Under the pieces are notes generated by a model that ran no database searches, was not told where the DNA came from, and saw only the letters and a list, made by a program, of their open reading frames with translations. Made by a program: the position numbers and the translations under genes. This document shows positions 3,403-42,018 of a DNA stretch of 58,454 bases, one piece after another. Origin of the DNA: an uncultured Candidatus Saccharibacteria bacterium (GTDB lineage: Bacteria > Patescibacteriota > Minisyncoccia > Phycocordibacterales > UBA918); contig CAYRMI010000002.1 in NCBI GenBank assembly GCA_964425625.1, forward strand, positions 1 through 58,454, in the 5' to 3' direction. Positions within the stretch are counted from its first letter, which is position 1. Each line of letters begins with the position of its first letter.

Positions 3403-4461
3403 ATGACTACAAAAATGTGTGTTCAATTTTGTATCTCTATTGTAGTAGCTGGTTTGGCCATAAGTTTTTTGCCTAACGTTGGTCTAGCCCAAGACAACAC
3501 CCCCACTTCTGATGAGGGTGTTGTTGCTAGTTCTACCGAAATAACTAGTCCAGTGGTGGTGGAGGAAATCCCTTGGTTTCGTATCGAGAAGTTGACGGGT
3601 GATAATCAAGCGATCGGTGACTTTGTGGTGGGGCCAGGGCGGGCGGAGATAGAAGTAAAGCCTGGTCAGACGGTGATTTATGAAATATCAGTCTCAAACC
3701 GAATTAGTGATAATCGCATCTTTGAGCTGACGGTGGAAGACGTGGCTGGTTCAAATGATGCCAGTCAAGCGGTGGTATTGCTCGGTGACGCGGTCGGACC
3801 ATACACGATTAAGGACTATATTTCTTTCCCTAAAAATACCTTCACCCTTCGCCTAGGGGAAAGAGCTCGTATTCCAGTAACGGTATCCATACCACCAAAC
3901 GCTGCTCCGGGTGGCTATTATGGTAGTGTGCTCGTGTCTACAGTGCAGGAAGAGCCCTTAAGTGAAGGACAGACCACTAGGTCACCTATTGTCGCTAGGG
4001 TGGGGACACTATTTTTTGTGACGGTGCCTGGGGAAATGAAATATGAAGGAGAAACCAAAGCTTTGACTCTAAAAAATAATCGTTTTTGGTATGAGAAAGG
4101 ACCGATAGTTTTAAATGTAATTTACGAAAATACTGGTTCGGTTCACCTTAATCCCTACGGCGAATTGCGCATCAAGAATCTGTTTGGTGAGGAGGTAGGT
4201 TTTGTTGAGTTGGAACCTTGGTTTGTTCTCCCTAAATCACTTCGTTCACGAGAAGTGACTTGGGATCGAGAATTGTTGTTTGGGCGCTATGTGGCTAGTG
4301 TCAGCATTAACCGTGGCTACGAGGATATAGTCGATGAGCAATCAGTGGTCTTTTGGGTCTTGCCGTGGAAAGTGGTAGCTGGTATTTTTGCTCTGGTATT
4401 TATCATCTTCTTTGGTTTTAGAATCTTCTTTAGAACGTTTGAGTTTAAACGCAAGACTTAG
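3403..4461 (+). CDS. DUF916/DUF3324-like (CscA-like) membrane-anchored protein
   Basis: Signal peptide; IPVTVSIPPNAAPGGYYGSVLVS...RVGTLFFVTVPG; NTGSVHLNPYGELRIKNLFG; C-terminal TM helix followed by basic tail FKRKT. Confidence 0.65.
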   Translation: MTTKMCVQFCISIVVAGLAISFLPNVGLAQDNTPTSDEGVVASSTEITSPVVVEEIPWFRIEKLTGDNQAIGDFVVGPGRAEIEVKPGQTVIYEISVSNRISDNRIFELTVEDVAGSNDASQAVVLLGDAVGPYTIKDYISFPKNTFTLRLGERARIPVTVSIPPNAAPGGYYGSVLVSTVQEEPLSEGQTTRSPIVARVGTLFFVTVPGEMKYEGETKALTLKNNRFWYEKGPIVLNVIYENTGSVHLNPYGELRIKNLFGEEVGFVELEPWFVLPKSLRSREVTWDRELLFGRYVASVSINRGYEDIVDEQSVVFWVLPWKVVAGIFALVFIIFFGFRIFFRTFEFKRKT

Positions 4462-4470
4462 CTTGTCTCT

Positions 4471-5238
4471 ATGACGCTTCGTTCCTTTACAATCTTGACA
4501 GCAGAAACTCTAGTCTTGACGGGAGTAATTTTGTCTATTTTGTTAGTTGGGGAAGCACAGGTACGGACTAGTACGAGCTATAAGTTAGAAAGTGATAGTA
4601 TCAACTTCGGTGGTGGTTTATCGTCTTCTTCCAACTATTCCCTAGAAAGTACCGGAGGGGAGATAGCAACCGGTAAGTCAGACAGTGCTTCCTATAGCTT
4701 GAGGGCTGGCTATCAGCAGATGCAAGAGGTGTTTATTAGTATGACAGCCCCTGGAAATGTAATAATGACGCCCAGTATAGGCGGTCTTACTGGCGGTACG
4801 GCTAATGGTTCAACTAGTGTGAATGTAATAACGGATAGTCCAAGTGGCTATTCACTAACCATCAGGGCTGAGAGTTCGCCTGCTATGCAAAAAGGGGCTG
4901 ATACTATAAATGACTACGTACCAGAAGCGTCACCCAATCCCGACCCGTCATTTATCACCGCTGCTACTGATGCCCACTTCGGCTTTTCGCCCCAAGGGTC
5001 TGATGTGGTTTTGCGATACCGAAATAATAGTTCAATTTGTAGTGCTGGTTCTCTTAGTACGGCAGAGGTTTGTTGGGATGGGTTTTCAACGTCAGAAAAA
5101 TTACTAGCCTCTGGGGGTGACAATCAACCCAGTGGCGCCACTACCACGCTTTACTTTAAGGTAGAACTGGGCGGTAATGTGACTAGACCGCCAGGAGCTT
5201 ATATTGCCACTACTACCTTAACTGCTTTGCCACTATGA
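4471..5238 (+). CDS. Secreted WxL-like protein (paralog 2) with extra Ser/Tyr-rich N-terminal segment
   Basis: Shares GGTANGSTSV, GYSLTI, a Cys pair, SGATTTLYF and GAYIATTTLTA with 2669-3382. Confidence 0.6.
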   Translation: MTLRSFTILTAETLVLTGVILSILLVGEAQVRTSTSYKLESDSINFGGGLSSSSNYSLESTGGEIATGKSDSASYSLRAGYQQMQEVFISMTAPGNVIMTPSIGGLTGGTANGSTSVNVITDSPSGYSLTIRAESSPAMQKGADTINDYVPEASPNPDPSFITAATDAHFGFSPQGSDVVLRYRNNSSICSAGSLSTAEVCWDGFSTSEKLLASGGDNQPSGATTTLYFKVELGGNVTRPPGAYIATTTLTALPL

Positions 5239-24272: not shown

Positions 24273-24962
24273 ATGCAAGTAGAAACCTGGGATCAATTGA
24301 TAGATGCGTTGCTGTTGCGAAAAATATCATTCGTGGTGACATTTTTTGTGGTTTTTCTTTTGTCATATGCCTTATTATCGTGGTTAGATTGGTTACCTGA
24401 GCCAATCATAGAATCAGAGACAACAGTTGAAGAAAAAGTTTTAGAAACCGCTTTAATGATGGGGGTAGTTGACTCTTTAATATCAAAAGATGAAGAACAG
24501 CCAGTGATACTTCCAAGCAGACCATTATTTCCTGATACTATAGTAATAGATAAATTAGACAGGACAATTCCAGTACTAAATCCTACTTCAAAGACGGTTG
24601 AAGATCTGGACGCCTCGCTTCTCTATGGAGTAGTAAGACATCCTGATTCGGCGACACTCGAACAAATCGGTACAGTGTTTGTGCTAGGACATTCTAGCTA
24701 TCTACCTACCGTGCTCAACCGAAATTTCCAAGCTTTCAATGGAATTCAGAATTTACAATTTGGTGACACTATTCGTCTGCAGTCAGAAGAAGTCGAATAC
24801 GTATATCGAGTCGATCGAGTATATCGAGCCAAAGCTCAGGATGTAACTGTACCGATAGCCGGTGATGTCCAGCGCTTAGTTTTGGCCACCTGTAATAGTT
24901 TTGGTACTGTAGATGACCGCTATATTGTCGAGGCCGGCTTACTAGAGACGAAAACTCTCTAA
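24273..24962 (+). CDS. Sortase family transpeptidase
   Basis: N-terminal TM; GHSS (His); LVLATC (TLxTC-like Cys); DRYIVEA (Arg). Confidence 0.85.
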   Translation: MQVETWDQLIDALLLRKISFVVTFFVVFLLSYALLSWLDWLPEPIIESETTVEEKVLETALMMGVVDSLISKDEEQPVILPSRPLFPDTIVIDKLDRTIPVLNPTSKTVEDLDASLLYGVVRHPDSATLEQIGTVFVLGHSSYLPTVLNRNFQAFNGIQNLQFGDTIRLQSEEVEYVYRVDRVYRAKAQDVTVPIAGDVQRLVLATCNSFGTVDDRYIVEAGLLETKTL

Positions 24963-25150: not shown

Positions 25151-28100
25151 ATGAATAAAAGAAAAGACTATATGTTGTTTAATTACATTACAAAAAAAAT
25201 AGTATTAATACTAACCATCTTTTTCGTTGTGGCGGGGGCCTTTTCAGGCGACCTAGGCAACTTACAGAATGGTTCTACTTTATTTGTTCCCCAAACCGTT
25301 TCGGCCTTTGAGCTTACTCCGCCACCACTACCGGATCCGATTGTGCGGACTTGTGTAGTGACGGCTAGTGCCTATGAAGTACCAACTGGAGCAGATTTGG
25401 TAATTTCTTGGCAGACTACAGGCTATACTATCTATACGCTGAATGGTCAGACAATCAATGGACCAAGCGGATCTAAAACTTTCCACAACATTCAAGAAAG
25501 TGATTCCTACACCCTAGTGGCATCTGATGAAAGTGGTAATACCTGTACTTCAAAAGTAACTGTTTATTGTATACCAGTACCACCACCAACTTGTACGCTG
25601 ACCCCAACCACTAAAACAATTAACAGTGGTGAAGCGGTTACCCTAGCCTGGACTACTACCAATGCCAATAGTGCTACCTTGACTGATTTTGGTACGGTGT
25701 CACTCAATGGTTCACAAGGCACTGGCGCTCTAACCGCTAGCAAAACTTATGTCTTATCCGTTTTAGGTAAGAATGGTAATACTATTAGTTGTCAGTCAGT
25801 GATTACGGTAACTCCACCAGTCCCCACGTTCTGTGAATTGAGAATTACCAAGTCGGTTGATAAAACGTCTGCTCGACCTGGTGATGAAGTTAATTACTCT
25901 ATTTTTATAAAGAATATTGGTACAGGTAACTGTAGTGGAAGTGGTGTGAAGATTGTTGATGTACATGATTCACAACTGACATTTATTAGTGCCGGCCAGT
26001 CTAGCAATATACTCCCTGGCTACACTGATATTCCTCTCTACACTGCCAGTACTAGGACGATTGTCTGGAACGGTGACGTCTTAACACCAGGCGAAGAGGG
26101 AACCATGACCTGGAAAGCTCGAATAAATAGTCTGGCCTGTGACACTTCAAAGTTGGTCAAAAATACTGCTAAGGCTACGGCTTTGGAGTTGGGTAACTAT
26201 ACGCAGTGGGTAAATAGCAATATTGTCGAGACCACGGTTACGGCTAATGCTTGTCCGATTCCTGCTCCGACTTGTTCTATGACTCCAGCCAGTATTACTA
26301 TCAACTCTGGTGAAGCAGTGACTTTGACTTGGGTCACTACTAATGCTTCGACCACTAGCCTAACTAGCTTTAACACCGTCCCTCTTAATGGTTCACAAAA
26401 CACTGGTGCTCTAACCGCTAGCAAAACTTATGTCTTGTCGGTCTTGGGTAAGAATGGTAATACCATTAGTTGCCAGTCGGTTATCAATGTAAAAGATACT
26501 CCACCAGCTCCCTCTTGTGATACTTTTACCGCTAACCCAAGTACTATCTTAAAGGGAGGAACTTCGACCTTAGCTTGGACTACTAGTAACATTACTCGGG
26601 TAGTTATAGATAACGGAATTGGTGAAGTGAGAGCGACTGGTACTTTAAGCGTATCGCCACTGTCGACGATTGAATATACACTTAAGGCTTACGGTGTAAG
26701 TGGAGCAGAAGCAACCTGCAAGGCTAAAATTACGGTTAACGAAATACCAGTTATTCCATTACCAGAATGTCTTTCTTTTGTTGCCTCACCTAGTACTTTG
26801 CCAGTTGGAGGTGGAAATGTAGTATTAACTTGGACTACCAAAAATGGTATTAGCGCCTCAATCTTGCCAACGATTGGAGCTGTCAGTTTAAACGGTTCGA
26901 CCACGGTAGCGGTGGCCACTTCGACCAACTTTACCTTAACGGTGCTTGGTCAAAATAATAAGTCAGTGTCATGTGTGGCTCCTGTTATAGTGACTCCTCC
27001 GGTGCCTGTACCGTTTACTTGTGCTAATAACGTCAATTTCTCGGCCAACCCAACTAAGATTAGTCGTGGTGATAATAGTGTTCTTATTTGGACTACTAAT
27101 GGGGTTGATAGCTTAAGTTTAAATCAGGGAATTTCTGCCACTGGTTTAAGTAGCTCAGTGACAGTAGAACCACAAACTACTACTACTTATACACTAACAG
27201 CCAAAAAGGGATCTGAGACAATTTCATGTCCAGTGACAGTGGAAGTAACTACCGGTGGCGGGGGAGGCGGGTCATCATCTCCAACTTGTGAACTAACTGT
27301 TTCCAAGAATAAGATTAAGTCTGGTGATACGGTTACGTTGCGCTGGGATAGCAACCGAGCTACCAATCTAGAATTGATTGATTCAAAAAATAAAGTCTTG
27401 GTGACAACTAAAAACAAGCTAGCAGATGACAAGGACGAATTATTTGATGGTTCAATTAAGGTTTCACCTAAGTCTGATACTACCTATACTTTGACCGTAG
27501 AGCGTGGTTCACGCGATCGGGTGTGTAAAGTAAAAGTAGAGGTTGAGGATAAGCTCGTCGTGACACAGGTGAGAGAGCAAAAGCCACTTATTGCTGGTAT
27601 AGCTTTGACGCAAGTACCATACACTGGTTTTGCGGCTGGTCCAATTATGACCATGTCATTCTATCTGCTATTGATTAGTTGGGCACTTTACTTAGCTTAT
27701 GTACTGGTGATAAAGCGTGATGTGATTGGTGGTTACAAATTAGCGCCTTCTCACATTGTAGCCGAAGCACCAACCCCAGAAGAAATTAGACCGGAATTGT
27801 TTGTTGCTTCAGTTAAAACTCCAATAGCACCAACGTTGATGCATGTTCAACCAAATAATTTGCCGGTTGCTCAAGCAGTGGTCGGTTATGCCAAAAGCCC
27901 CGAAGTGGCTCAGCTGACAGTAGCTCCTACCGTGAAGAGTTTTTCTCAGCAAGCAACGGATGAGGTGGTTACAGCGATAGAAAACCATGCTCATGCTAAG
28001 CGAGCACTACTCTCGAGCGATGCTATTCGACAACTGATTGGTTCAACTAGCAGTTTTGAAGACAGTATCGCAACTCTCAATGAAGTAATTTTGGAAGCAA

Positions 28101-34468: not shown

Positions 34469-34619
34469 GGGATTGCCTCAAAAAAAAGACACAGATAAAA
34501 GCCCCAGCGGGCTTTTTCTTATGCTCGGCGACCGGTCCTGCCACAGCGCTTCGCGCAATTAAGGGGTGGCAGGCACCGGCTCCGGTCGCCTGCGCAATGT
34601 CTTTTTTTGAGGCAATCCC
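34469..34619. repeat. Structured dispersed repeat copy 1 (119-bp core 34486-34604 inside about 22-bp terminal inverted arms)
   Basis: Core is 118/119 identical to 35335-35453. Arms GGGATTGCCTC(A8)GACA / TGTC(T7)GAGGCAATCCC. Confidence 0.95.
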
Positions 34620-34633
34620 TCGCTCTTTGGTGG

Positions 34634-34717: not shown

Positions 34718-35347
34718 ATGTCTAAAGCTAAATACCTGGTGGGAATTGACGAAGCTGGACGTGGGCCTTTGGCTGGGCCGGTGGCGGTGGGGGTGGTTTG
34801 TGTGCCGAGGGATTTTAATTGGCGGTTAATCCCGGGAGTGGGTGATTCTAAGCAAGTGAAGGAGAAAAATCGCGAAGCGATTTTTCTCCTAGCCAAAAGA
34901 CTAAAGCAGGAAAAAGTGTTTGATTACGCCGTGACACTGGTTAGTGCAAAAATAATTGACCAAAAGGGAATTAGTAAAGCAGTACAAATTGGTATCGATA
35001 AAGGTCTTAGGAAGTTGGCTCTGTCGGAGAATGAGGTGGAGGTGAAACTCGATGGTTTGTTGCAGGCCCCGGCAGAATACCGAAACCAAGAGACAATTAT
35101 TAAAGGTGATGATAAGGAGTTGGTGATTGGTTTAGCGTCGATTTTGGCCAAGGTAACGCGTGATACATATATGAAGAAGTTGGCCAAGAATAATGAGTAC
35201 TTGGCTTATGAATTTGCTACTCATAAAGGTTATGGGACGAAAATGCACCGGGAAGCTATCGTCCAAAACGGTCTATCCGGAGAACATCGTGTTAGCTTTT
35301 GTAAGAGTTTACTCGCTCTTGAGTACCTCAAACCAAGACACAGATAA
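34718..35347 (+). CDS. rnhB: Ribonuclease HII
   Basis: GIDEAGRGPLAGPV, DSKQ, IKGD, ASILAKVTRD, HKGYGT. The stop codon lies inside repeat copy 2. Confidence 0.96.
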   Translation: MSKAKYLVGIDEAGRGPLAGPVAVGVVCVPRDFNWRLIPGVGDSKQVKEKNREAIFLLAKRLKQEKVFDYAVTLVSAKIIDQKGISKAVQIGIDKGLRKLALSENEVEVKLDGLLQAPAEYRNQETIIKGDDKELVIGLASILAKVTRDTYMKKLAKNNEYLAYEFATHKGYGTKMHREAIVQNGLSGEHRVSFCKSLLALEYLKPRHR

Positions 35348-35466
35348 AAGCCCCAGCGGGCTTTTTCTTATGCTCAGCGACCGGTCCTGCCACAGCGCTT
35401 CGCGCAATTAAGGGGTGGCAGGCACCGGCTCCGGTCGCCTGCGCAATGTCTTTGTTTGCGGTGCTC
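35321..35466. repeat. Structured dispersed repeat copy 2
   Basis: Same 119-bp core; different, imperfect outer arms GAGTACCTCAAACCAAGACA / TGTCTTTGTTTGCGGTGCTC. Confidence 0.95.
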
Positions 35467-35566
35467 CTTCGCTATATAAATCGAAGCCCGTTTTGTAGAA
35501 GAAATTCTTAAGGAAAATCTGTAAGAGTCCATGATTGAGGTCTTTAATCTAATCCAGACAATTTAG

Positions 35567-35594
35567 TTGCTTTTTTGCAAGGATTTGCTATAGT
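35567..35594 (+). promoter_or_regulatory. rpmF promoter
   Basis: TTGCTT-16-TATAGT with TG extension (same boxes as the rpmE promoter), 9 nt before the ATG. Confidence 0.6.
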
Positions 35595-35603
35595 TTCCCC
35601 ACT

Positions 35604-35876
35604 ATGGTTATTCGAATGCGACATACGCGGTCACATACCGCCAATCGACGCTCACATCACGCTCTTAAGGCCCCTAATTTGGCTGTATGTAAGAATTGTG
35701 AATCAGAGCATCGTCCACACCACATGTGCTTAAATTGTGGTTATTACAAGGGCAGAGTAGTGATTGATTTGCTAGAAAAGAAAAAAGGTCGTGAGGCTAG
35801 ATTGCAAGCCAAGCGGGAAGCTATCCGTGGAGAAGTGGCGGTTGCACCAACCGAAACTCCAGCTAAGCAAAAATAA
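35604..35876 (+). CDS. rpmF: 50S ribosomal protein L32 with C-terminal extension
   Basis: RRSHHAL, CKNC...HHMCLNCGYYKGR. Confidence 0.93.
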   Translation: MVIRMRHTRSHTANRRSHHALKAPNLAVCKNCESEHRPHHMCLNCGYYKGRVVIDLLEKKKGREARLQAKREAIRGEVAVAPTETPAKQK

Positions 35877-35975
35877 ACTCTAGTGTAAGCCCCGTCTGGG
35901 GGCTTTGTGGATTTTGCACATTGTCAGTCTTGTTACGTGTTAAACTGTAAGCAGTAAAAGTTAGTACATTAAAAT

Positions 35976-36878
35976 ATGGCCAATCGACACGTTTCAAGAA
36001 GTATCGTTCTCCAATCACTCTTTGAGTGGGATTTAAATGCAATAGAAAGAAAAGCCGTTATTGAAGTTTTAGATAGAAATATTGAGGAGTTTGCGCCCAA
36101 TAAGACAGACCGACCATTTATGGAACGTCTCCTTGATGGCATTTTAGGCAAGCAAACAGAGTTGGATTTAGTTATTACCAAGGCCGCCCCAGAGTGGCCA
36201 ATTGAACGTATCTCACCGGTAGACCGTAATATCCTACGTCTAGGTCTCTATGAGCTTCTATTTGCTGACCGCTCTGAGGTGCCAGCCAAGGTAGCTATCA
36301 ATGAAGCGATTGAGTTGGCTAAGCAATTTGGTGGCGATAATAGTAGCCGTTTTGTTAATGGAGTACTTGGGGCAGTTTACAAGGAAATAGGTGAGCCCGG
36401 TAAGGAGGAAACCAGTAAGCGCAAGAAGCGAGAATTGCCATTTGACCAAATGCCAATTCAACGATTGGCAGGAGCGGTGGTTTACGCTGAGGAAAATGGT
36501 GAGATGTACTTGGCTCTGGTGCATGACATTTTTGGCCACTGGACGTTATCTAAGGGTAAAATTGAAGAAAACGAAAGTGTCGAAGCGGGCGCGGTCCGGG
36601 AACTCAAGGAAGAAATGGGTCTAGATGTCACGATTGAGGCGGAACTCGGCAAAAATGAATACGTAGCTTCACACCCAGAATTGGGCAAAGTGCGCAAGCA
36701 GGTTCACTACTATCTAGCTTCTTCTCCACACACCGAAATAACCCTAGAGCAAAAGGGAGGTTTGGATGATGCTCGGTGGTTTAGAGTAGCTGATATCCTG
36801 GAACTAAACTTCTACGAAGATATCCTACCTATCGTCACCAAGGCGGTGACTATGTTGGTTGGCAGACGCAGTAAATAA
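35976..36878 (+). CDS. nusB: NusB antitermination factor fused to a C-terminal NUDIX hydrolase
   Basis: NusB: DRNILRLGLYEL, VAINEAIELAKQFG, FVNGVLG. NUDIX box GKIEENESVEAGAVRELKEEMGL (36555-36623). Confidence 0.92.
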   Translation: MANRHVSRSIVLQSLFEWDLNAIERKAVIEVLDRNIEEFAPNKTDRPFMERLLDGILGKQTELDLVITKAAPEWPIERISPVDRNILRLGLYELLFADRSEVPAKVAINEAIELAKQFGGDNSSRFVNGVLGAVYKEIGEPGKEETSKRKKRELPFDQMPIQRLAGAVVYAEENGEMYLALVHDIFGHWTLSKGKIEENESVEAGAVRELKEEMGLDVTIEAELGKNEYVASHPELGKVRKQVHYYLASSPHTEITLEQKGGLDDARWFRVADILELNFYEDILPIVTKAVTMLVGRRSK

Positions 36879-36908
36879 TGGTACGCTCAAAGATAATTTA
36901 CTATCAGA

Positions 36909-37646
36909 TTGGCTAACGATTTTACTCCCATGTCTACCGAAGAAAACTTCCTCGCTCTGAACTTGACCGCCTTGGAAAAGATATTAGCAGTCACTTTTAA
37001 AGATAAAACATTGTTATTGTCGGCGATTACTCACCGTTCCTATTTAAATGAACACCGAGAGGCGACTTGGGAACATAATGAACGCTTAGAATTCTTGGGT
37101 GATGCGGTACTCGAACTTGTCGTTACTGACTATCTTTTTTCAAAGTACCCTGAAAAACCAGAAGGGGAACTCACTGCTATACGAGCAGCTTTGGTTAATA
37201 CTATTTCACTGGCTACTGCTTCAGAGGAGATGGCGGTAAATCAATTTTTACTCATGTCCAAGGGTGAAGCAAAAGATGAGGGTCGGGCCAGACAATATAT
37301 TCTCGCTAATGTGTTTGAGGCTTGTATTGGGGCCATCTACTTAGACCAGGGCTATGCTATGGCCCAAACCTTCATCGCCGATAGATTATTTAAAAACACT
37401 GAAGACATTGTGAAGATGCGTCTCTGGCAAGACGCCAAGAGTCGCTTCCAAGAGCTAGCCCAAGAGCATGCTTCGATTACGCCGACTTATGAGACAGTCT
37501 CGCAAGAAGGTCCAGATCATGATCGGGTATTTACGGTCGGGGTATATTTACGACATGAAAAAGTCGCCGAGGGTAAAGGCCGGTCTAAGCAAGAAGCTGA
37601 GCAAGAGGCCGCTAAGGCAGCGGTCAAGGCTAAGGGGTGGCAATAA
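36909..37646 (+). CDS. rnc: Ribonuclease III
   Basis: HNERLEFLGDAVLEL, ANVFEACIGAIYLDQG, dsRBD with GKGRSKQEAEQEAA. ATG 36930 is the likely start. Confidence 0.96.
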   Translation: MANDFTPMSTEENFLALNLTALEKILAVTFKDKTLLLSAITHRSYLNEHREATWEHNERLEFLGDAVLELVVTDYLFSKYPEKPEGELTAIRAALVNTISLATASEEMAVNQFLLMSKGEAKDEGRARQYILANVFEACIGAIYLDQGYAMAQTFIADRLFKNTEDIVKMRLWQDAKSRFQELAQEHASITPTYETVSQEGPDHDRVFTVGVYLRHEKVAEGKGRSKQEAEQEAAKAAVKAKGWQ

Positions 37647-37685
37647 GCCAAAATGAACTAATAAGTACGTGCTATAATTTTAGAT

Positions 37686-38300
37686 ATGTCTAGTATCGGC
37701 TATAACTATACCAAGGGTTTTACGTTAGTTGAATTATTGGTAGTAATCACGGTCATTGGGATATTAAGTACCGTGGCCATGATGAGTTTTCAGGAGGTGC
37801 GTGAGCAAGCCAGAGATAAGACCCGCATGGCGACTATCAAAGAAATTCAGCTGGCTCTTGCGTCCTATTTTGATTTGTATGGGGAATATCCTGAGCCTTG
37901 TGATTCCGATGTGGCAGATTGGTCTGGTAGTGTAAAAGCCGGGACATTTCAATGTGATGATCCTGACCAACCTTTCATCTTAGGTAATCCTGGAGCTGGT
38001 CGGCCGTTTGTCCCAACTTTTATGGAGCAAATGCCTAGAGATCCTTTGTATGAAACCCTGCCAGACAATTTTGGTTATGTTTACACTACTAATGCGACTC
38101 GGGATTCCTATAAGTTAATGGTCTACGGATCAGTTGAAGATGACTTAGTGGAGTGGAATGATCCGTTGGCAAGATGTCCCAAGGCTTGTGATGGTGAGGC
38201 TGGTACAGCTGATGTTTGCAATAACGGATCGGCTGAATTCACCGCCACCTTTGCTAGTACTTATGCCATCTATGCTGGATCGGCTATGTTATGCAAATAA
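37686..38300 (+). CDS. Type IV pilin / GspG-like prepilin
   Basis: KG^FTLVELLVVI class III signal, ARDKTR, C-terminal Cys residues. Confidence 0.9.
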   Translation: MSSIGYNYTKGFTLVELLVVITVIGILSTVAMMSFQEVREQARDKTRMATIKEIQLALASYFDLYGEYPEPCDSDVADWSGSVKAGTFQCDDPDQPFILGNPGAGRPFVPTFMEQMPRDPLYETLPDNFGYVYTTNATRDSYKLMVYGSVEDDLVEWNDPLARCPKACDGEAGTADVCNNGSAEFTATFASTYAIYAGSAMLCK

Positions 38301-38359
38301 ATTGACATAGCAATAGTATTTTGAGCCCCAGACTTTAAGGACATGATATAATTTAAAAA

Positions 38360-39142
38360 GTGAAAAAATTTACTCAAAAAATTAAAACTGGCTTTACCCT
38401 TATTGAACTTTTGCTAGTGGTGGCGGTGATTGGGATTTTGGTGACCGTAGTGACAATGAATTATAGCAACACTGCTGCGAATTCAAGAGACGCCCAGCGT
38501 CAGGCTGATTTACGCAATCTACAACAAACGCTTGAGGCCTACAAAAACCGTCATGGTCAATACCCTGAGCAATGTACACCAAAAGGTGGAGCAAATGGTT
38601 GGTCGGGCCAAATCGGCACGGACTATGAATGTGCTAATACAGACGAGCCGTTCATCTTAGGTAATCCTGGAGCTGGTCGGCAGTTTGTCCCTGATTTTAT
38701 GCCAGTCTTACCAACCGACCCCAAGCTACCAAGCGGGCGGACTGATGTTGGTTATGTCTATACGACTAACGCAGAGGGTTCAGTTTACAAAATAATGGCC
38801 ATGAATACCGTGGAGGCTGATGAAGGTCTGATTAGTGCTGGTGTAGGCGACAATAACCCGTACATGCATCCATTTAGAAGTTGTGATATGCAGGTTGGTA
38901 TTACCTCTAGTGGGGATGCTTCAGGTCTTCTTGGTTCGACTCTGTGTAGTGTTGTGTACACAGCACCAGCTGCGAGTTTCATCCCAGACTACTGCTTCTT
39001 AAATCATTCTCGTTTTAAAAGCTCCTATGCTCTCTGGGGTGGGGCAGCACCTATCTTAGGCGTGGTTCCTGATACTGATTTTGCTTTAAGTCCGGCTGAA
39101 AGGTATTCTGTGAAAGATACAGCCGCAATAGTGTGTAAATAG
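38360..39142 (+). CDS. Type IV pilin / GspG-like prepilin
   Basis: TG^FTLIELLLVV, SRDAQRQADL, LPTDP. Confidence 0.9.
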   Translation: MKKFTQKIKTGFTLIELLLVVAVIGILVTVVTMNYSNTAANSRDAQRQADLRNLQQTLEAYKNRHGQYPEQCTPKGGANGWSGQIGTDYECANTDEPFILGNPGAGRQFVPDFMPVLPTDPKLPSGRTDVGYVYTTNAEGSVYKIMAMNTVEADEGLISAGVGDNNPYMHPFRSCDMQVGITSSGDASGLLGSTLCSVVYTAPAASFIPDYCFLNHSRFKSSYALWGGAAPILGVVPDTDFALSPAERYSVKDTAAIVCK

Positions 39143-39150
39143 TAATAAAT

Positions 39151-39729
39151 ATGTTTAATAATAAATATTTAGTAGGATTTACTTTAGTAGAATTATTGGT
39201 AGTGATTAGTATAATAGGTCTCCTTTCCACTATTTTGTTTGCCAGTTTTGATGAGTCGAGAGCACAAGCTAGAGATAAAGCACGACTGGTGGCGCTAAAA
39301 GAGATGCAACTAGCAATTGAGCAGTATCGTTCTCAGACTGGTGAATATCCGCAAGCAAATTGTGGAAGTGCTACCGATGATTATAGTAGTAATTTCGCTG
39401 GTCCTGCTCCTGCGATATATGCAGGGGTACCAGACTTTTTAGAATGTGTAAGTAATGCTTATCGCGCTTTTTATATAAAAGGGTTGGTACCAGACTATAT
39501 CGCTCGATTACCCTTTGACTCCAAGTTTGAACTTGAAAATGATCGGGGGTTTTATTACCGTTCTGATAAATACTCCTACAAGCTGATGGCATATGATGTG
39601 GTGGAAGCTCTGACGGTAGACAGTTTTACGCATGAGTTTGCACGCTGTCCTAGCGCAATTGGAGCCTGTGCCGGAGGTGTACCGACCACTACCTATGCTG
39701 TTTATAGCCCAGGGGCGGAAGATTGGTAG
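39151..39729 (+). CDS. Type IV pilin / GspG-like prepilin
   Basis: VG^FTLVELLVVI, ARDKAR, G.YP. Confidence 0.9.
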   Translation: MFNNKYLVGFTLVELLVVISIIGLLSTILFASFDESRAQARDKARLVALKEMQLAIEQYRSQTGEYPQANCGSATDDYSSNFAGPAPAIYAGVPDFLECVSNAYRAFYIKGLVPDYIARLPFDSKFELENDRGFYYRSDKYSYKLMAYDVVEALTVDSFTHEFARCPSAIGACAGGVPTTTYAVYSPGAEDW

Positions 39730-39750: not shown

Positions 39751-42018
39751 ATGTACCTTAAAGAATTATCCATCAACGGTTTTAAATCTTTCGCCAAAAA
39801 AAGCGAGCTGGGTTTTTCTGCACCGATTACGGCGATAGTGGGTCCCAATGGCTCCGGTAAGAGTAATGTCGCCGAATCCTTCCGCTTTGTGCTCGGGGAA
39901 CAGTCAGTCAAATCCATGCGTGGCAAGCGAGGCGAGGACCTGATTTGGGGTGGCTCCAGTAGTGTCTCTAGGGGTAATCGCGCTAGTGTGGTAGTGACGC
40001 TCGATAATACCAATCGAGTTTTCCCGCTTGATTTTAGTGAGATTATTATCGAACGAGTGGTACATCGTGATGGCCAAAATGACTATTTGCTTAACGGTTC
40101 TAATGTTCGACTAAAAGATATTCAAGAACTACTAGCCTCGGCCAATATTGGCTCGACCGGCCATCATATTATTTCTCAAGGTGAGGCCGACCGTATCCTT
40201 TCGGCTAATGCCAAAGAACGGCGCGAGATGATTGAAGACGCGCTTGGCTTAAAGATCTATCAATACAAAAAACAAGAAGCGGAACGCAAGCTAACTAAAA
40301 CACTCGAGAATGTGTCTCAAGTAGAATCGCTCCGGCGCGAAGCGGCTCCGCATCTGAAGTACCTAGAGAAGCAAATTCAAAAAATTGAAAAATCACTACA
40401 GGTACAAAGTGAGCTACGACTCACCTACGCCGAATACTTAAAGCGCGAGGATGTCTATATTGCACACCACCACGACCGCCTACAGACCGAAAGGCGAGTG
40501 CCCGAAGCTGAGCTAGAGCAGGTAAAGAAAGCCTTGCGCGAGGCTAAAGAGACCCTACAGGCATCCGAGACCAAGCAAGACTCAAGCGAGATCATCAATG
40601 CGCAAGAGGCCTTAGCTAAAGCCGTTCGGGAGAGACAACAGAGCGAACGCGAATATAGTAAGTGTGAGGGTCAGATAGTGCTACTGGCGCGCCGTATAGA
40701 GGAGCATGAGCGTAGAGCCAAGCAGGTAGAAGGTAAGCCGATACCGTACCAAGAGGTAAAGTCCTTAATCGATACGCTTGAGCAACAGGTAGAAAAAGCC
40801 ATCGCTCGAGCGGAGGTTTCCCATCTAGAACGGGCTTTAACTGACATTGTGCATCGGCTTAAGTTATTTTTGGAGCGTCGCGATGATGCCACTGATGACA
40901 CGACTCTGTTTGACCATGAGGAGCGCAATCGCCTACAAAAAGAATTAACGGAACTAGGTAAACGAGTAACTGACGCCACAGAGCTTGAAACCAAGGTTAG
41001 ACTAGCTTATGAGGCGATGGAAAAGGCTAGAGCGACCCAAGCCACCGAAGGTCGCGAAGCGGAACGGGCGGTCTTTCGTCTAGTCGGTGAGGAGCGTGAA
41101 TTAGAGAACAAACTGGAACGGATTGACCGGGAGTTGTCTATTTTAGATCGTGATCGCACTGAATTTAAGGAGGAGCTTCAAGAAGCTGTAACTCTGCTCG
41201 GACGTGGGGCGGCTGATTATTTTACTTTTGTCTTAAAGAGTGAGAGCGGGGCTGAGGTAATTGAGGCTGAAGTGGTAGGGGAGTCACGTGAAGTGCAAAG
41301 ACAGCGTCGACACAATTTGGAAAAGTTAAAAATTCGTCTGGAGGAACTGGGTATTGGAGCTACTGAAGATGTGATGAAGGAGCACAAAGACGCCAAAGAA
41401 CGCGATGAGTTTTTGGCTCATGAACTAGAGGATCTGACGCAATCCATCGCCAAACTACGAGAACTTATCACCGACCTAGAGGCCAAGCTCGATGAGCAAT
41501 TTGGCGTGGGTATTGAAAAAATCTCCACCGAGTTCAACCGCTTCTTTACTTTGATGTTTGGTGGTGGGGAAGCCGAGTTGGTGCGGGTTGTGATGAAGGT
41601 AGAGGAGGGAGATGAAGAGATGGAAGGTGAGAAAGCAAATAGTTTTGTACCCAACAGTAGTCGGGACGGTATTGAGTTGTCAGTAAAGCTACCAAACAAG
41701 CGAGTAAAGGGGCTAGAGATGCTTTCTGGTGGTGAACGAGCCCTGACATCCATTGCCCTCATCTTTGCCATGAGTCAGGTCAACCCACCACCGTTTATTA
41801 TTCTCGATGAGACCGATGCCGCGCTCGATGAGGCCAATAGCCGTCGTTATGGCGATATGATTGAGGCCTTGGCCAAGAAATCCCAACTCATCCTCATTAC
41901 TCACAATCGTGAGACAATGAGTCGGGCAGGCGTACTCTATGGCGTCACAATGGGTGGTGATGGTATCTCCAAGCTCCTTTCGGTCAAGCTCGATGAAGCG
42001 GTCGCTGTCGCCAAATAG
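39751..42018 (+). CDS. smc: SMC-family ATPase, short (755 aa), no recognisable hinge
   Basis: GFKSF, Walker A GPNGSGKSN, signature LSGGE, Walker B ILDETDAALD. Confidence 0.88.
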   Translation: MYLKELSINGFKSFAKKSELGFSAPITAIVGPNGSGKSNVAESFRFVLGEQSVKSMRGKRGEDLIWGGSSSVSRGNRASVVVTLDNTNRVFPLDFSEIIIERVVHRDGQNDYLLNGSNVRLKDIQELLASANIGSTGHHIISQGEADRILSANAKERREMIEDALGLKIYQYKKQEAERKLTKTLENVSQVESLRREAAPHLKYLEKQIQKIEKSLQVQSELRLTYAEYLKREDVYIAHHHDRLQTERRVPEAELEQVKKALREAKETLQASETKQDSSEIINAQEALAKAVRERQQSEREYSKCEGQIVLLARRIEEHERRAKQVEGKPIPYQEVKSLIDTLEQQVEKAIARAEVSHLERALTDIVHRLKLFLERRDDATDDTTLFDHEERNRLQKELTELGKRVTDATELETKVRLAYEAMEKARATQATEGREAERAVFRLVGEERELENKLERIDRELSILDRDRTEFKEELQEAVTLLGRGAADYFTFVLKSESGAEVIEAEVVGESREVQRQRRHNLEKLKIRLEELGIGATEDVMKEHKDAKERDEFLAHELEDLTQSIAKLRELITDLEAKLDEQFGVGIEKISTEFNRFFTLMFGGGEAELVRVVMKVEEGDEEMEGEKANSFVPNSSRDGIELSVKLPNKRVKGLEMLSGGERALTSIALIFAMSQVNPPPFIILDETDAALDEANSRRYGDMIEALAKKSQLILITHNRETMSRAGVLYGVTMGGDGISKLLSVKLDEAVAVAK

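Follow-up and report, generated by a model that had tools for sequence, protein, structure and literature searches.

A NusB–NUDIX fusion in Paceibacteria with a conserved putative nucleotide-binding pocket and drifting catalytic glutamates

Introduction

NusB is a core and well-studied factor of rRNA transcription, and to our knowledge no accessory ligand-binding domain on it has previously been described. Enzyme folds are nonetheless found beside nucleic-acid-binding factors in several systems. In NrtR, a NUDIX domain senses a ligand for the nucleic-acid-binding transcription-factor part to which it is coupled, and SuhB has the fold of an inositol monophosphatase. In Escherichia coli, SuhB is a subunit of rrnTAC and is needed for the stable integration of NusB/E (PMC6614801), while F122 of NusB is the residue that stacks on U8 of boxA (PMC3177189). 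CF Im25 provides a NUDIX fold inside an RNA-processing factor: it binds Ap4A (Kd 2.4 μM) as well as ATP without hydrolysis, which is absent because the glutamates of its NUDIX box are replaced (PMC2425470). In Ap4A hydrolases, adenine is stacked by a conserved loop-5 Tyr and a second Tyr or Phe, and K42, Y82 and K89 of human NUDT2 have been assigned to the P1 phosphate (PMC4734340).

Here we describe a gene that joins NusB to a NUDIX domain in a 58,454-nucleotide stretch of bacterial DNA, hereafter the window. Full-text literature searches found no published description of a NusB-NUDIX protein.

Results

A single open reading frame with an ATG start, located at 35976..36878 on the forward strand of the window, encodes 300 amino acids that run from a complete NusB through a disordered basic linker into a NUDIX domain. 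The NusB domain (residues 1–140; 35976..36395, +) is recognized by PF01029 at residues 7–136 (E 2.4e-36, 125.5 bits against a gathering score of 23.1) and by the NusB equivalog TIGR01951 (130.7 bits against a cut-off of 88.35). The flexible linker (residues 141–162; 36396..36461, +) is characterized by low pLDDT and a pI of 9.55, and includes the stretch KEETSKRKKRE at residues 143–153. The remainder, residues 163–300 plus the stop codon (36462..36878, +), is a NUDIX domain of putative Ap4A/ApnA-hydrolase type, matched by PF00293 at residues 164–282 (E 1.2e-17, 64.6 bits against a gathering score of 21.1). Direct motif matching places its NUDIX box, GKIEENESVEAGAVRELKEEMGL, at residues 194–216 (36555..36623, +), where it fits GX5EX7REUXEEXGU exactly and is therefore canonical. 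Thirty nucleotides (30 nt) separate the stop codon from the TTG start of rnc (RNase III; 36909..37646, +), whose product scores 254.6 bits with TIGR02191 against a cut-off of 166. Pfam, TIGR01951 and the motif match hence bear out the earlier note, which had read, in one frame, a complete NusB domain, a short basic linker and a NUDIX domain whose box is canonical, with rnc as the next gene.

Upstream lies rpmF, encoding ribosomal protein L32 (35604..35876, +; PF01783, E 4.4e-18). Between it and the fusion gene, a terminator-like hairpin with a T-run (35887..35905, +) was located by consensus match only; it reads AAGCCCC-GTCTG-GGGGCTT followed by TGTGGATTTT, and an RNA-run contig begins at 35940, downstream of it. 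BoxA-like sites with at most two mismatches numbered 3 in the window against 7.7 expected by chance, none of them above chance, and the 58-kb window contains no rRNA gene or operon. A search of the same 58 kb for a second NusB or a related NUDIX found none. The window also carries a 144-nt repeat, for which Rfam returned no match.

The fusion is a genuine gene that occurs widely among uncultured, ultra-small bacteria of one group. An assembly chimera or a frameshift artefact has a negligible probability, and this reading was rejected on the agreement of homologues, species genomes and independent DNA and RNA contigs. The fusion architecture is found in thousands of database proteins from NCBI, JGI, ENA and Logan, which are full-length homologues labelled simply 'NusB'. 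Both Pfam domains are present in 240/240 of the matches listed by two protein searches (53–100% identity to the query), and the architecture persists to ~30% identity. Relatives are encoded by 347 stretches in species-representative genomes, of which 80 were kept, and 80/80 are full-length matches. The fusion, which the earlier note had allowed might be unique to this assembly, thus belongs to a large clade whose carriers include at least 80 species-level genomes of Patescibacteria (Paceibacteria). A contig from run X1 shows 0 differences over 35500–37700, and contigs from runs X2 and X3 span the NusB-NUDIX junction, again with 0 differences. The junction, the linker and the NUDIX domain are also covered by RNA-run contigs, a sign of expression, and one such contig bridges 36751–36953, from the 3′ end of the fusion gene into the 5′ end of rnc. 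Searches of further RNA runs recovered the locus in one run only, as contigs of close relatives. Two apparent signs of split genes were discarded, since most of the 'standalone NUDIX' representatives are N-terminally truncated fragments of fusions, and the extra NUDIX gene in L082 is an unrelated gene.

The gene order around the fusion is conserved. rnc adjoins the fusion in 79/80 species loci and in 50/59 more distant loci, the other 9 contigs ending before rnc, while rpmF lies upstream in 78/80 species loci, the other 2 contigs starting too near the fusion gene. The order rpmF-nusB::nudix-rnc is kept to ~50% identity, and rpmF is also found upstream in more distant fusion loci and in standalone-NusB loci. 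Since sister lineages with a plain NusB share the order rpmF-nusB-rnc, the adjacency of rnc is a property of nusB and older than the fusion, and it is therefore uninformative about the NUDIX part. The synteny with rnc that the earlier note had singled out is real, then, but not special to the fusion, and we rejected it as evidence for a link between the NUDIX domain and RNase III. The fusion gene occupies the same position between rpmF and rnc as the standalone nusB of the sister lineages, with no second copy in the window. We therefore read it as probably the nusB of this organism, a positional ortholog within a conserved rpmF-nusB-rnc(-smc) cluster.

In the AlphaFold2 (AF2) model, seven helices over residues 4–138, predicted with high pLDDT, form the all-helical NusB fold of the N-terminal half. 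Foldseek comparisons of this part with 1tzv, 3r2d and 1eyv gave TM scores of 0.81–0.87, with 0.87 for T. maritima NusB (1tzv) and 0.85 (rmsd 2.0) for the Aquifex NusB-NusE-RNA complex (3r2d). F126 aligns to E. coli F122 and is invariant in both family alignments. The NusB part demonstrably retains the sequence hallmarks of a boxA/S10-binding NusB. RsmB models match residues 20–154 only, far below their cut-offs. A conserved GEPGK motif at residues 139–143 closes this half, its last residues overlapping the linker. The linker itself has pLDDT below 50 at residues 142–151 and is the least conserved segment of the fusion protein, ranging across the family from 7 to 41 aa with a mean net charge of +0.8. 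The pTM of the two-domain model is 0.70, a value that may reflect docking of the two domains.

By sequence and by predicted fold, the NUDIX domain is closest to the Ap4A/ApnA hydrolases. Many NUDIX structures match the predicted alpha/beta/alpha fold at a Foldseek probability of 1.00, the nearest being the Aquifex Ap4A hydrolase 3i7u (TM 0.88), with 9cxx, 1vc8, 4mpo, 1ktg and 4ijx as further matches; the nearest PDB sequences are 9cxx, 1vc8, 4ilq, 3i7u and 1kt9. This set of nearest structures includes the M. tuberculosis diadenosine polyphosphatase Rv2985 (9cxx), T. thermophilus Ndx1 (1vc8) and CT771, as well as the C. elegans and human Ap4A hydrolases. Alignment to human NUDT2 with hhalign, for which the NUDT2 sequence was checked against 3u53, gave a probability of 97% at 26% identity. 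The NUDIX domain of NrtR (3gz8), shown bound to ADP-ribose, is likewise among the top fold matches. An RppH assignment was rejected, as no RppH equivalog model comes anywhere near its cut-off (NF001936, 24.8 bits against 118; NF001938, 17.0 against 116; NF001937, 16.5 against 139). Of the subfamilies that the earlier note had offered, the Ap4A/ApnA-hydrolase neighbourhood is thus supported and RppH is not, and its alternative suggestion of Ap4A sensing fits this predicted placement. The NUDIX domain is also acidic (net charge -11), which argues against an extended RNA-binding surface.

The hhalign mapping pairs K193, Y229, K241 and Y280 with NUDT2 K42, Y82, K89 and F128, and E209 and E213 with E58 and E62; from the alignment, we read human Y82 and F128 as the adenine-stacking pair. 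Sequence-weighted conservation reaches 95% at each of W189, K193, W268 and Y280, 86% at Y229 and 82% at K241, whereas the box glutamates are conserved at 37% (E209), 64% (E212) and 78% (E213). Parsimony on 420 proteins, using a crude UPGMA tree of an unevenly sampled family, requires 3–4 changes at W189, K193, W268 and Y280 and 57 at the median site, but 66 at E212 and at least 89 at E209, which places the 'RE' glutamate above the median site. All three REUXEE glutamates are kept in 10/54 non-redundant representatives (50% clusters), in 23/74 species genomes of the window's own clade and in 227/420 redundantly sampled proteins, about half. The canonical box is a minority state in the family; degenerate boxes of natural orthologues include the 'RALKSE' and 'SKV...RAL.EE' types. 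In the 76 proteins that keep at most one box glutamate, the pocket is still 87–97% conserved, and non-canonical proteins have canonical neighbours that are up to 96% identical; the loss of the box, as read from these sequences, is recent and recurrent. RNase III served as a control: its catalytic E58, E61, D65 and E137 are invariant in 141/141 sequences, although rnc is more divergent overall.

These comparisons of sequences demonstrate strong purifying selection on the NUDIX part. Selection falls on K193, Y229, K241 and Y280, which correspond to the phosphate-binding and adenine-stacking positions of Ap4A hydrolases, and also on W189 and W268, but not on the metal-binding box glutamates. For W189, W268 and possibly others, conservation may serve folding instead of ligand contact. 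E213, R208 and E200 are fairly well kept across the family, and E213 corresponds to the glutamate on which catalysis depends most in related enzymes. The structures 4ijx and 1xsa are of mutant forms in which alanine replaces E58 of NUDT2, the counterpart of E209. Because E213 and R208 are fairly well kept, many 'degenerate' members could retain slow hydrolysis.

We consider it unlikely that NusB delivers an active NUDIX hydrolase to nascent pre-rRNA, where the 5′ pyrophosphate or cap (ppp, NAD or Np4N) would be removed co-transcriptionally and catalysis would be what is selected. Such an enzyme would suit the canonical box of the window copy and the retention of E213 and E200, and yet the three glutamates, complete in about half of the redundantly sampled proteins, persist in only a minority of the representatives and of the species genomes in the window's own clade, with E209 varying more than the median site. 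The fold matches do include decapping enzymes of the Dcp2 type as well as BdRppH; the RppH HMMs, however, give 17–25 bits where 116–139 are demanded, and free dinucleoside polyphosphates are the substrates of the nearest relatives. Similarly, the tether near the boxA site and the neighbouring rnc are in keeping with an RNA-processing theme, to which the acidity of the domain runs counter. Hydrolysis by the tethered domain, as the earlier note had envisaged it, is not supported as the conserved function, because the canonical box is a minority state and canonical and non-canonical pairs are up to 96% identical. Catalysis may nevertheless matter for the window's gene, since its protein is fully canonical, and hydrolysis is probably still present in this copy.

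The same drift could be expected if the NUDIX domain worked without a ligand, as a structural or protein-interaction module within the rRNA antitermination complex, a reading that we rate as rather unlikely. The domain would then be an in-cis counterpart of a SuhB-like accessory subunit, stabilizing NusB/S10 on RNA polymerase or contacting NusA, S4 or RNase III, and the 'pocket' residues would be conserved for folding or for contacts with another protein. A domain that is strongly conserved while its catalytic residues drift agrees with this, and SuhB sets a precedent in E. coli (PMC6614801); ribosomal proteins, which are basic, or parts of RNA polymerase could be bound by the acidic surface. 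A pure protein interface would nevertheless predict otherwise than what is seen, namely that the best-conserved residues are the ApnA phosphate-binding and adenine-stacking positions. The pTM of the two-domain chain hints at a defined arrangement, which has to be set against a linker of such variable length.

It is more doubtful still that the fusion is uncoupled, a housekeeping Ap4A or nucleotide-sanitizing hydrolase having become joined to nusB as part of a streamlined genome, with each half working on its own. The genomes of Patescibacteria are compact, the linker is flexible and poorly conserved, and the nusB-rnc adjacency is older than the fusion, all of which would be compatible with such an accident. 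A housekeeping enzyme, however, should keep its catalytic glutamates, as rnc does, and proteins with a decayed box still have an undegraded NUDIX domain with a conserved pocket. The whole fusion protein is also more conserved than rpmF, rnc or rnhB of the same loci, and the persistence of the architecture at low identity is equally at odds with independent halves.

Discussion

With a pocket that is conserved and catalytic residues that drift, the NUDIX domain resembles a reader of nucleotides more than it does an obligate enzyme. We therefore favour, with middling confidence in the explanation as a whole, a nusB ortholog carrying a tethered module that would bind nucleotide polyphosphates, hydrolysis being optional. 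In this explanation, a C-terminal NUDIX domain from an Ap4A/ApnA-hydrolase-type enzyme would have been gained in one large clade of Patescibacteria (Paceibacteria/Parcubacteria) and joined to NusB through a flexible, variable and mildly basic linker. Its conserved job would be to bind an adenine-nucleotide-polyphosphate-like ligand, for which Ap4A/ApnA, ATP and a 5′-triphosphate or Np4-capped RNA end are candidates. Binding would take place beside the NusB-S10-boxA complex on nascent rRNA, and could link nucleotide or stress status, or the 5′ end of the transcript, to antitermination and then to RNase III-dependent maturation. Hydrolysis would be dispensable, serving where present to reset or remove the ligand.

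A more specific proposal, which we put forward tentatively and regard as improbable though worth stating, is that the NUDIX pocket in Paceibacteria NusB acts as a built-in reader that gates or stabilizes NusB-S10-boxA and RNase III processing. The pocket might bind Ap4A-type alarmones, or the 5′-(p)ppA or Np4A end of the nascent rRNA leader, and might thereby replace SuhB-like accessory factors, with lineages toggling between hydrolysing and binding-only versions. If this were true, reduced genomes would possess a direct link from nucleotide and stress status to ribosome synthesis. The naturally occurring canonical and degenerate variants offer built-in controls for this hypothesis.

The fusion is fixed throughout a bacterial group that is very large, abundant in the environment and almost uncultured. 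A pocket that is kept while glutamates drift among near-identical relatives offers a clear case from nature of an enzyme fold becoming a binding module. Should the ligand prove to be Ap4A or an RNA 5′ end, the fusion would represent a new route from nucleotide signals to ribosome biogenesis.

Compared with known systems, the N-terminal half is the most conventional part of the protein. Its fold matches the NusB of T. maritima, Aquifex and M. tuberculosis, and the boxA-stacking Phe (F126) and the KFVNGVL helix are invariant in the fusion family. It differs from an ordinary NusB by ~160 extra C-terminal residues, comprising the linker and the NUDIX domain, and from E. coli NusB by an Asn at the position of D118, the same change as in the E. 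coli D118N mutant. The GEPGK motif and a charged tail are shared with the standalone NusB of sister lineages. The arrangement of a NusB-fold RNA-binding domain N-terminal to an enzyme-fold domain, in rRNA biogenesis, recalls RsmB/Sun. The fusion, however, has a NUDIX domain at its C-terminus in place of a methyltransferase domain, and its NusB part, unlike the N-terminal domain of RsmB, scores as a true NusB.

The NUDIX half shares with the ApnA hydrolases (human NUDT2, the C. elegans enzyme, Aquifex aq_158, T. thermophilus Ndx1, Chlamydia CT771 and the Nudix domain of M. tuberculosis Rv2985/MutT1) the W-x-x-x-K-G entry into the box, but here the domain is attached to NusB and the family as a whole does not conserve the catalytic glutamates. 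With RppH it has the NUDIX fold in common, BdRppH being a distant fold match, whereas its nearest neighbours are the ApnA hydrolases and the domain is acidic. SuhB resembles the fusion as an enzyme-fold protein that stabilizes NusB/E within rrnTAC (PMC6614801), and it offers an analogy for a non-catalytic role; it is nonetheless a separate polypeptide of unrelated fold, without homology to the NUDIX domain. NrtR pairs its NUDIX domain with a DNA-binding winged helix and has ADP-ribose as its ligand, while the present domain is joined to an antitermination factor that binds RNA, and its pocket is like that of an ApnA hydrolase. CF Im25 (NUDT21), which acts in pre-mRNA 3′ processing, likewise places a NUDIX fold within an RNA-processing factor, although it is eukaryotic, belongs to another NUDIX subfamily (PF13869) and lacks a NusB partner. 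Loss of catalysis is a fixed trait of CF Im25, whereas in the NusB-NUDIX proteins canonical and degenerate boxes coexist among close relatives.

The fusion gene and its surroundings

The fusion is encoded by a forward-strand (+) open reading frame at 35976..36878, which begins with ATG and specifies 300 amino acids. Its NusB domain spans residues 7-136 (Pfam, E 2.4e-36) and scores 130.7 bits against the NCBIfam NusB equivalog TIGR01951, whose cut-off is 88.35. The NUDIX domain spans residues 164-282 (Pfam, E 1.2e-17), with a canonical box GKIEENESVEAGAVRELKEEMGL at residues 194-216. Between them lies a linker (residues ~141-162, including KEETSKRKKRE), the sole low-confidence stretch of the AlphaFold2 model (mean pLDDT 84.8, pTM 0.70; residues 142-151 with pLDDT <50). 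Across the fusion family this linker is mildly basic and varies from 7 to 41 aa, and the NUDIX domain is acidic, with a net charge of -11 in the window copy and a family mean of -7. These features show a protein composed of an intact NusB, a flexible tether of variable length and an acidic NUDIX domain.

The rnc gene (36909..37646; RNase III, TIGR02191, 254.6 bits) begins 30 nt past the fusion stop. The earlier note's reading of the sequence, NusB, a basic linker and a NUDIX domain with a canonical box followed by rnc, was accurate. On the upstream side are rpmF (35604..35876), rnhB (34718..35347) and, on the opposite strand, dnaE; 3′ of rnc follow three type IV pilin-like genes, a short smc and an RNase R/II-like gene. 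The RNase III has Asn at N134, as in 138 of 141 related genomes, a position that we take to be that of the E. coli catalytic Asp D114 (motif D-x-x-E-A).

Several other features were observed in the window. A 144-nt direct repeat, 94% identical, lies on both sides of rnhB (34481-34624 and 35330-35473), its first copy inside an 18-nt perfect inverted repeat. It has a very stable predicted fold (-84 kcal/mol, z = -7.6), no match in Rfam and weak copies (~73% identity) in two related genomes (loci L020 and L041), and could represent a small RNA or a structured element between genes. The tandem pilin-like genes between rnc and smc (37686-39729) carry an N-terminal methylation motif, and the block is variable or absent among relatives; since two of them have a common 74-nt segment (37951-38024 and 38628-38701, 85% identical), they are paralogues. 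The SMC-family protein (39751-42018) has only 755 aa; typical bacterial SMC proteins are well over 1,000 aa. A gene of equal size follows rnc in a distant relative (locus L081). A 153-nt unit is present in three tandem copies, 86-93% identical, at 1-459, where the GC content of the window is highest (0.55 vs about 0.44 elsewhere). A sortase gene (24273-24962) stands just upstream of the gene of a 1144-aa DUF11-domain protein, in which a 226-nt repeat (25586-25811 and 26267-26492, 74% identical) probably corresponds to domain repeats of a surface protein.

Distribution of the fusion

Both Pfam domains are present in all of the best 120 database clusters (84-100% identical; sources NCBI, JGI, ENA and Logan), which are annotated merely as 'NusB'. 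Scanning a single genome for each GTDB species gave 347 stretches encoding a relative; the 80 kept are full-length and 76-92% identical, and their labels are of Patescibacteria type (Paceibacteria, Kaiserbacteria, Nomurabacteria, Parcubacteria). Among 50%-identity representatives, searched exhaustively, 155 proteins matched at E <=1e-30; the 150 best of these yielded 54 full-length fusion representatives, down to ~32% identity. Their profile matched at least 8000 further proteins at E <=1e-10, with NusB and NUDIX both present in 120/120 among the matches listed.

Contigs of three DNA runs show zero differences over the NusB-NUDIX junction. Metatranscriptome contigs from a run of another study span the linker and NUDIX domain (36405-36700) and join the fusion stop to rnc (36751-36953), their differences being mostly spaced 3 nt apart; this RNA evidence is thin, as the contigs come from close relatives and may reflect DNA carry-over. 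The survey of its distribution proposed in the earlier note thus finds the fusion clade-wide rather than confined to this assembly, and the species genomes, database clusters and independent junction-spanning DNA contigs leave an assembly or frameshift artefact with practically no probability.

Three of the kept loci (L030, L052 and L071) have the typical Paceibacteria rnhB-rpmF-nusB::nudix-rnc arrangement, at 80-83% identity to the window, under implausible MAG labels (Acidimicrobiales, Azotimanducaceae, Patiriisocius), probably through mis-binning or mislabelling of those assemblies.

A full-text literature search found nothing relevant on a published NusB-NUDIX fusion, including in Patescibacteria/CPR, and a review of the Nudix clan leaves NusB unmentioned; domain tables of the databases do display the architecture, but under the annotation NusB alone.

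Synteny and origin

The order rnhB-rpmF-fusion-rnc is kept in 79 of the 80 species loci, the exception being a contig that ends early; rpmF itself is visible in 78, as two contigs start too close to the fusion gene to show it. The fusion protein (76-92% identity) is more conserved than rpmF, rnc or rnhB of the same loci. In relatives at only ~50-60% identity, rpmF-fusion-rnc(-smc) is retained. NusB-only matches came from 24 metagenomic loci, including two cut ORFs, one of which runs into a NUDIX start; the majority with sufficient flank read rpmF-nusB-rnc. Since this order is common to both kinds of locus, the fusion gene appears to be nusB's positional ortholog, and adjacency to rnc is an older trait of nusB in this phylum. 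The placement directly upstream of RNase III emphasized in the earlier note is therefore kept in relatives, but it is not specific to the fusion. The standalone NusB of these sister lineages already ends in GEPGK and a variable K/E-rich tail, so the NUDIX domain seems to have joined a charged tail that was already there.

Two standalone 142-aa NUDIX proteins (50%-cluster representatives P0241 and P0258) are 52-53% identical to the window NUDIX domain and have canonical boxes, at whose entry a MutT-like 'PGG' replaces the 'SKG/PKG' lysine; they may derive from gene fission, be chimeras or be related to the donor gene. One relative (L082/L083) has an extra standalone 198-aa NUDIX gene between rnhB and rpmF (3963-4559), unrelated in sequence to the fused domain.

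No signs of decay were seen in the conserved residues and motifs of NusB. R4/H5/R8, at the N terminus, never vary in the family alignment, and the motifs DRNILR and KVAINEAIELAK are largely invariant; N122 occupies the E. coli D118 position. F126 lines up with E. coli F122, which stacks on boxA U8 and is required for function (PMC3177189), and does not vary in either family alignment.

The NUDIX domain is of the Ap4A-hydrolase type

The top PDB sequence matches are the M. tuberculosis Rv2985/MutT1 Nudix domain, T. thermophilus Ndx1 (an Ap6A hydrolase), Chlamydia CT771, and the Aquifex and C. elegans Ap4A hydrolases. Foldseek with the fusion model places the Aquifex Ap4A hydrolase best (TM 0.88), followed by Rv2985 ('Nudix diadenosine polyphosphatase'), MutT1, the NrtR NUDIX domain, Ndx1, CT771, and the C. 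elegans and human Ap4A hydrolases. Together with a profile alignment to human NUDT2 (97% probability, 26% identity; sequence confirmed against PDB 3u53), these matches show an Ap4A-hydrolase-type domain, in the Ap4A/ApnA-hydrolase neighbourhood. The RppH-type option of the earlier note falls away, the RppH equivalog models scoring 17-25 bits vs cut-offs of 116-139.

In the NUDT2 alignment, K193 corresponds to K42, Y229 to Y82, K241 to K89, Y280 to F128, W189 to W38, W268 to W116, E209 to E58 and E213 to E62. [quoted passage not shown] This mapping of the pocket (K193, Y229, K241, Y280) rests on 26% identity, and some of the conserved aromatics may be structural. PDB entry 4ijx names an E58A mutant, and the 1xsa chain likewise has Ala there.

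The pocket is conserved while the box drifts

All three REUXEE glutamates (E209, E212, E213) are present in only 10 of the 54 representatives, one per 50%-identity cluster, and 31 have at most one; within the window's own clade (>=76% identity), 23 of 74 unique species-level genomes have all three. The canonical box of the window copy is thus a minority state. Sequencing errors do not account for box variants such as RALKSE, RSLKDE, RKIKEE and S-K-V...RAL.EE, since each was sampled in several to dozens of proteins. Non-canonical proteins have canonical-box neighbours at up to 96% identity.

Weighted conservation is 37% for E209 (rank 94 of 137 NUDIX positions), 64% for E212, 69% for R208 and 78% for E213, vs 95% for W189, K193, W268 and Y280, 86% for Y229 and 82% for K241. 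A UPGMA tree of 420 unique proteins, built with the box left out of the distances, gives by Fitch parsimony at least 89 changes for E209 and at least 66 for E212, against 57 for the median site and 3-4 for W189, W268, Y280 and K193. In the 76 proteins that retain no more than one glutamate of the box, pocket residues remain 87-97% conserved. In the adjacent RNase III, a more divergent gene (49-84% identity), catalytic E58, E61, D65 and E137 are invariant in 141/141 sequences. Although sampling is uneven and the tree crude, the order in which sites rank is robust, and the rnc comparison is a clean control.

These alignments show conserved pocket equivalents and catalytic glutamates that are dispensable across the family. 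With the pocket kept, a drifting box and invariant catalytic residues in rnc, the NUDIX domain is under strong selection, of which classical metal-dependent chemistry is not the target. Catalysis on pre-rRNA 5′ ends as its main function, along the lines of the earlier note, fits the canonical box of the window copy but not the drift elsewhere, and is rather unlikely. E213 and R208 are still fairly conserved, so slow hydrolysis is possible in members with a 'degenerate' box. A ligand-independent scaffold would tolerate loss of the glutamates but leaves the conserved pocket unaccounted for; we consider it unlikely. A housekeeping enzyme uncoupled from NusB would suit the flexible, poorly conserved linker, but given the drifting box and the clade-wide fusion it is very unlikely.

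Proposed role and known systems

We infer instead that, close to the NusB-S10-boxA complex, the NUDIX domain would bind an adenine-nucleotide-polyphosphate-like ligand, with hydrolysis optional, although the window copy, which has an intact box, probably still hydrolyses. The ligand could be free Ap4A/ApnA or ATP, making the domain a sensor, or a 5′-ppp or Np4-capped RNA end, making it a reader; of these, a small ligand accords better with the acidic surface and the nearest relatives. The fusion is a conserved, clade-wide NusB with an accessory NUDIX module, which on this reading is changing from enzyme to binding domain.

The NrtR NUDIX domain, crystallised with ADP-ribose and a top Foldseek fold match of the fusion model, acts as a sensor. 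SuhB, which has an inositol-monophosphatase fold, offers a second parallel. In the E. coli rRNA antitermination complex it is a subunit stabilising NusB/E (PMC6614801), a precedent for such a partner of NusB. CF Im25, within an RNA-processing factor, binds Ap4A without hydrolysing it (PMC2425470), and is thus a precedent for the non-hydrolysing binding proposed here.
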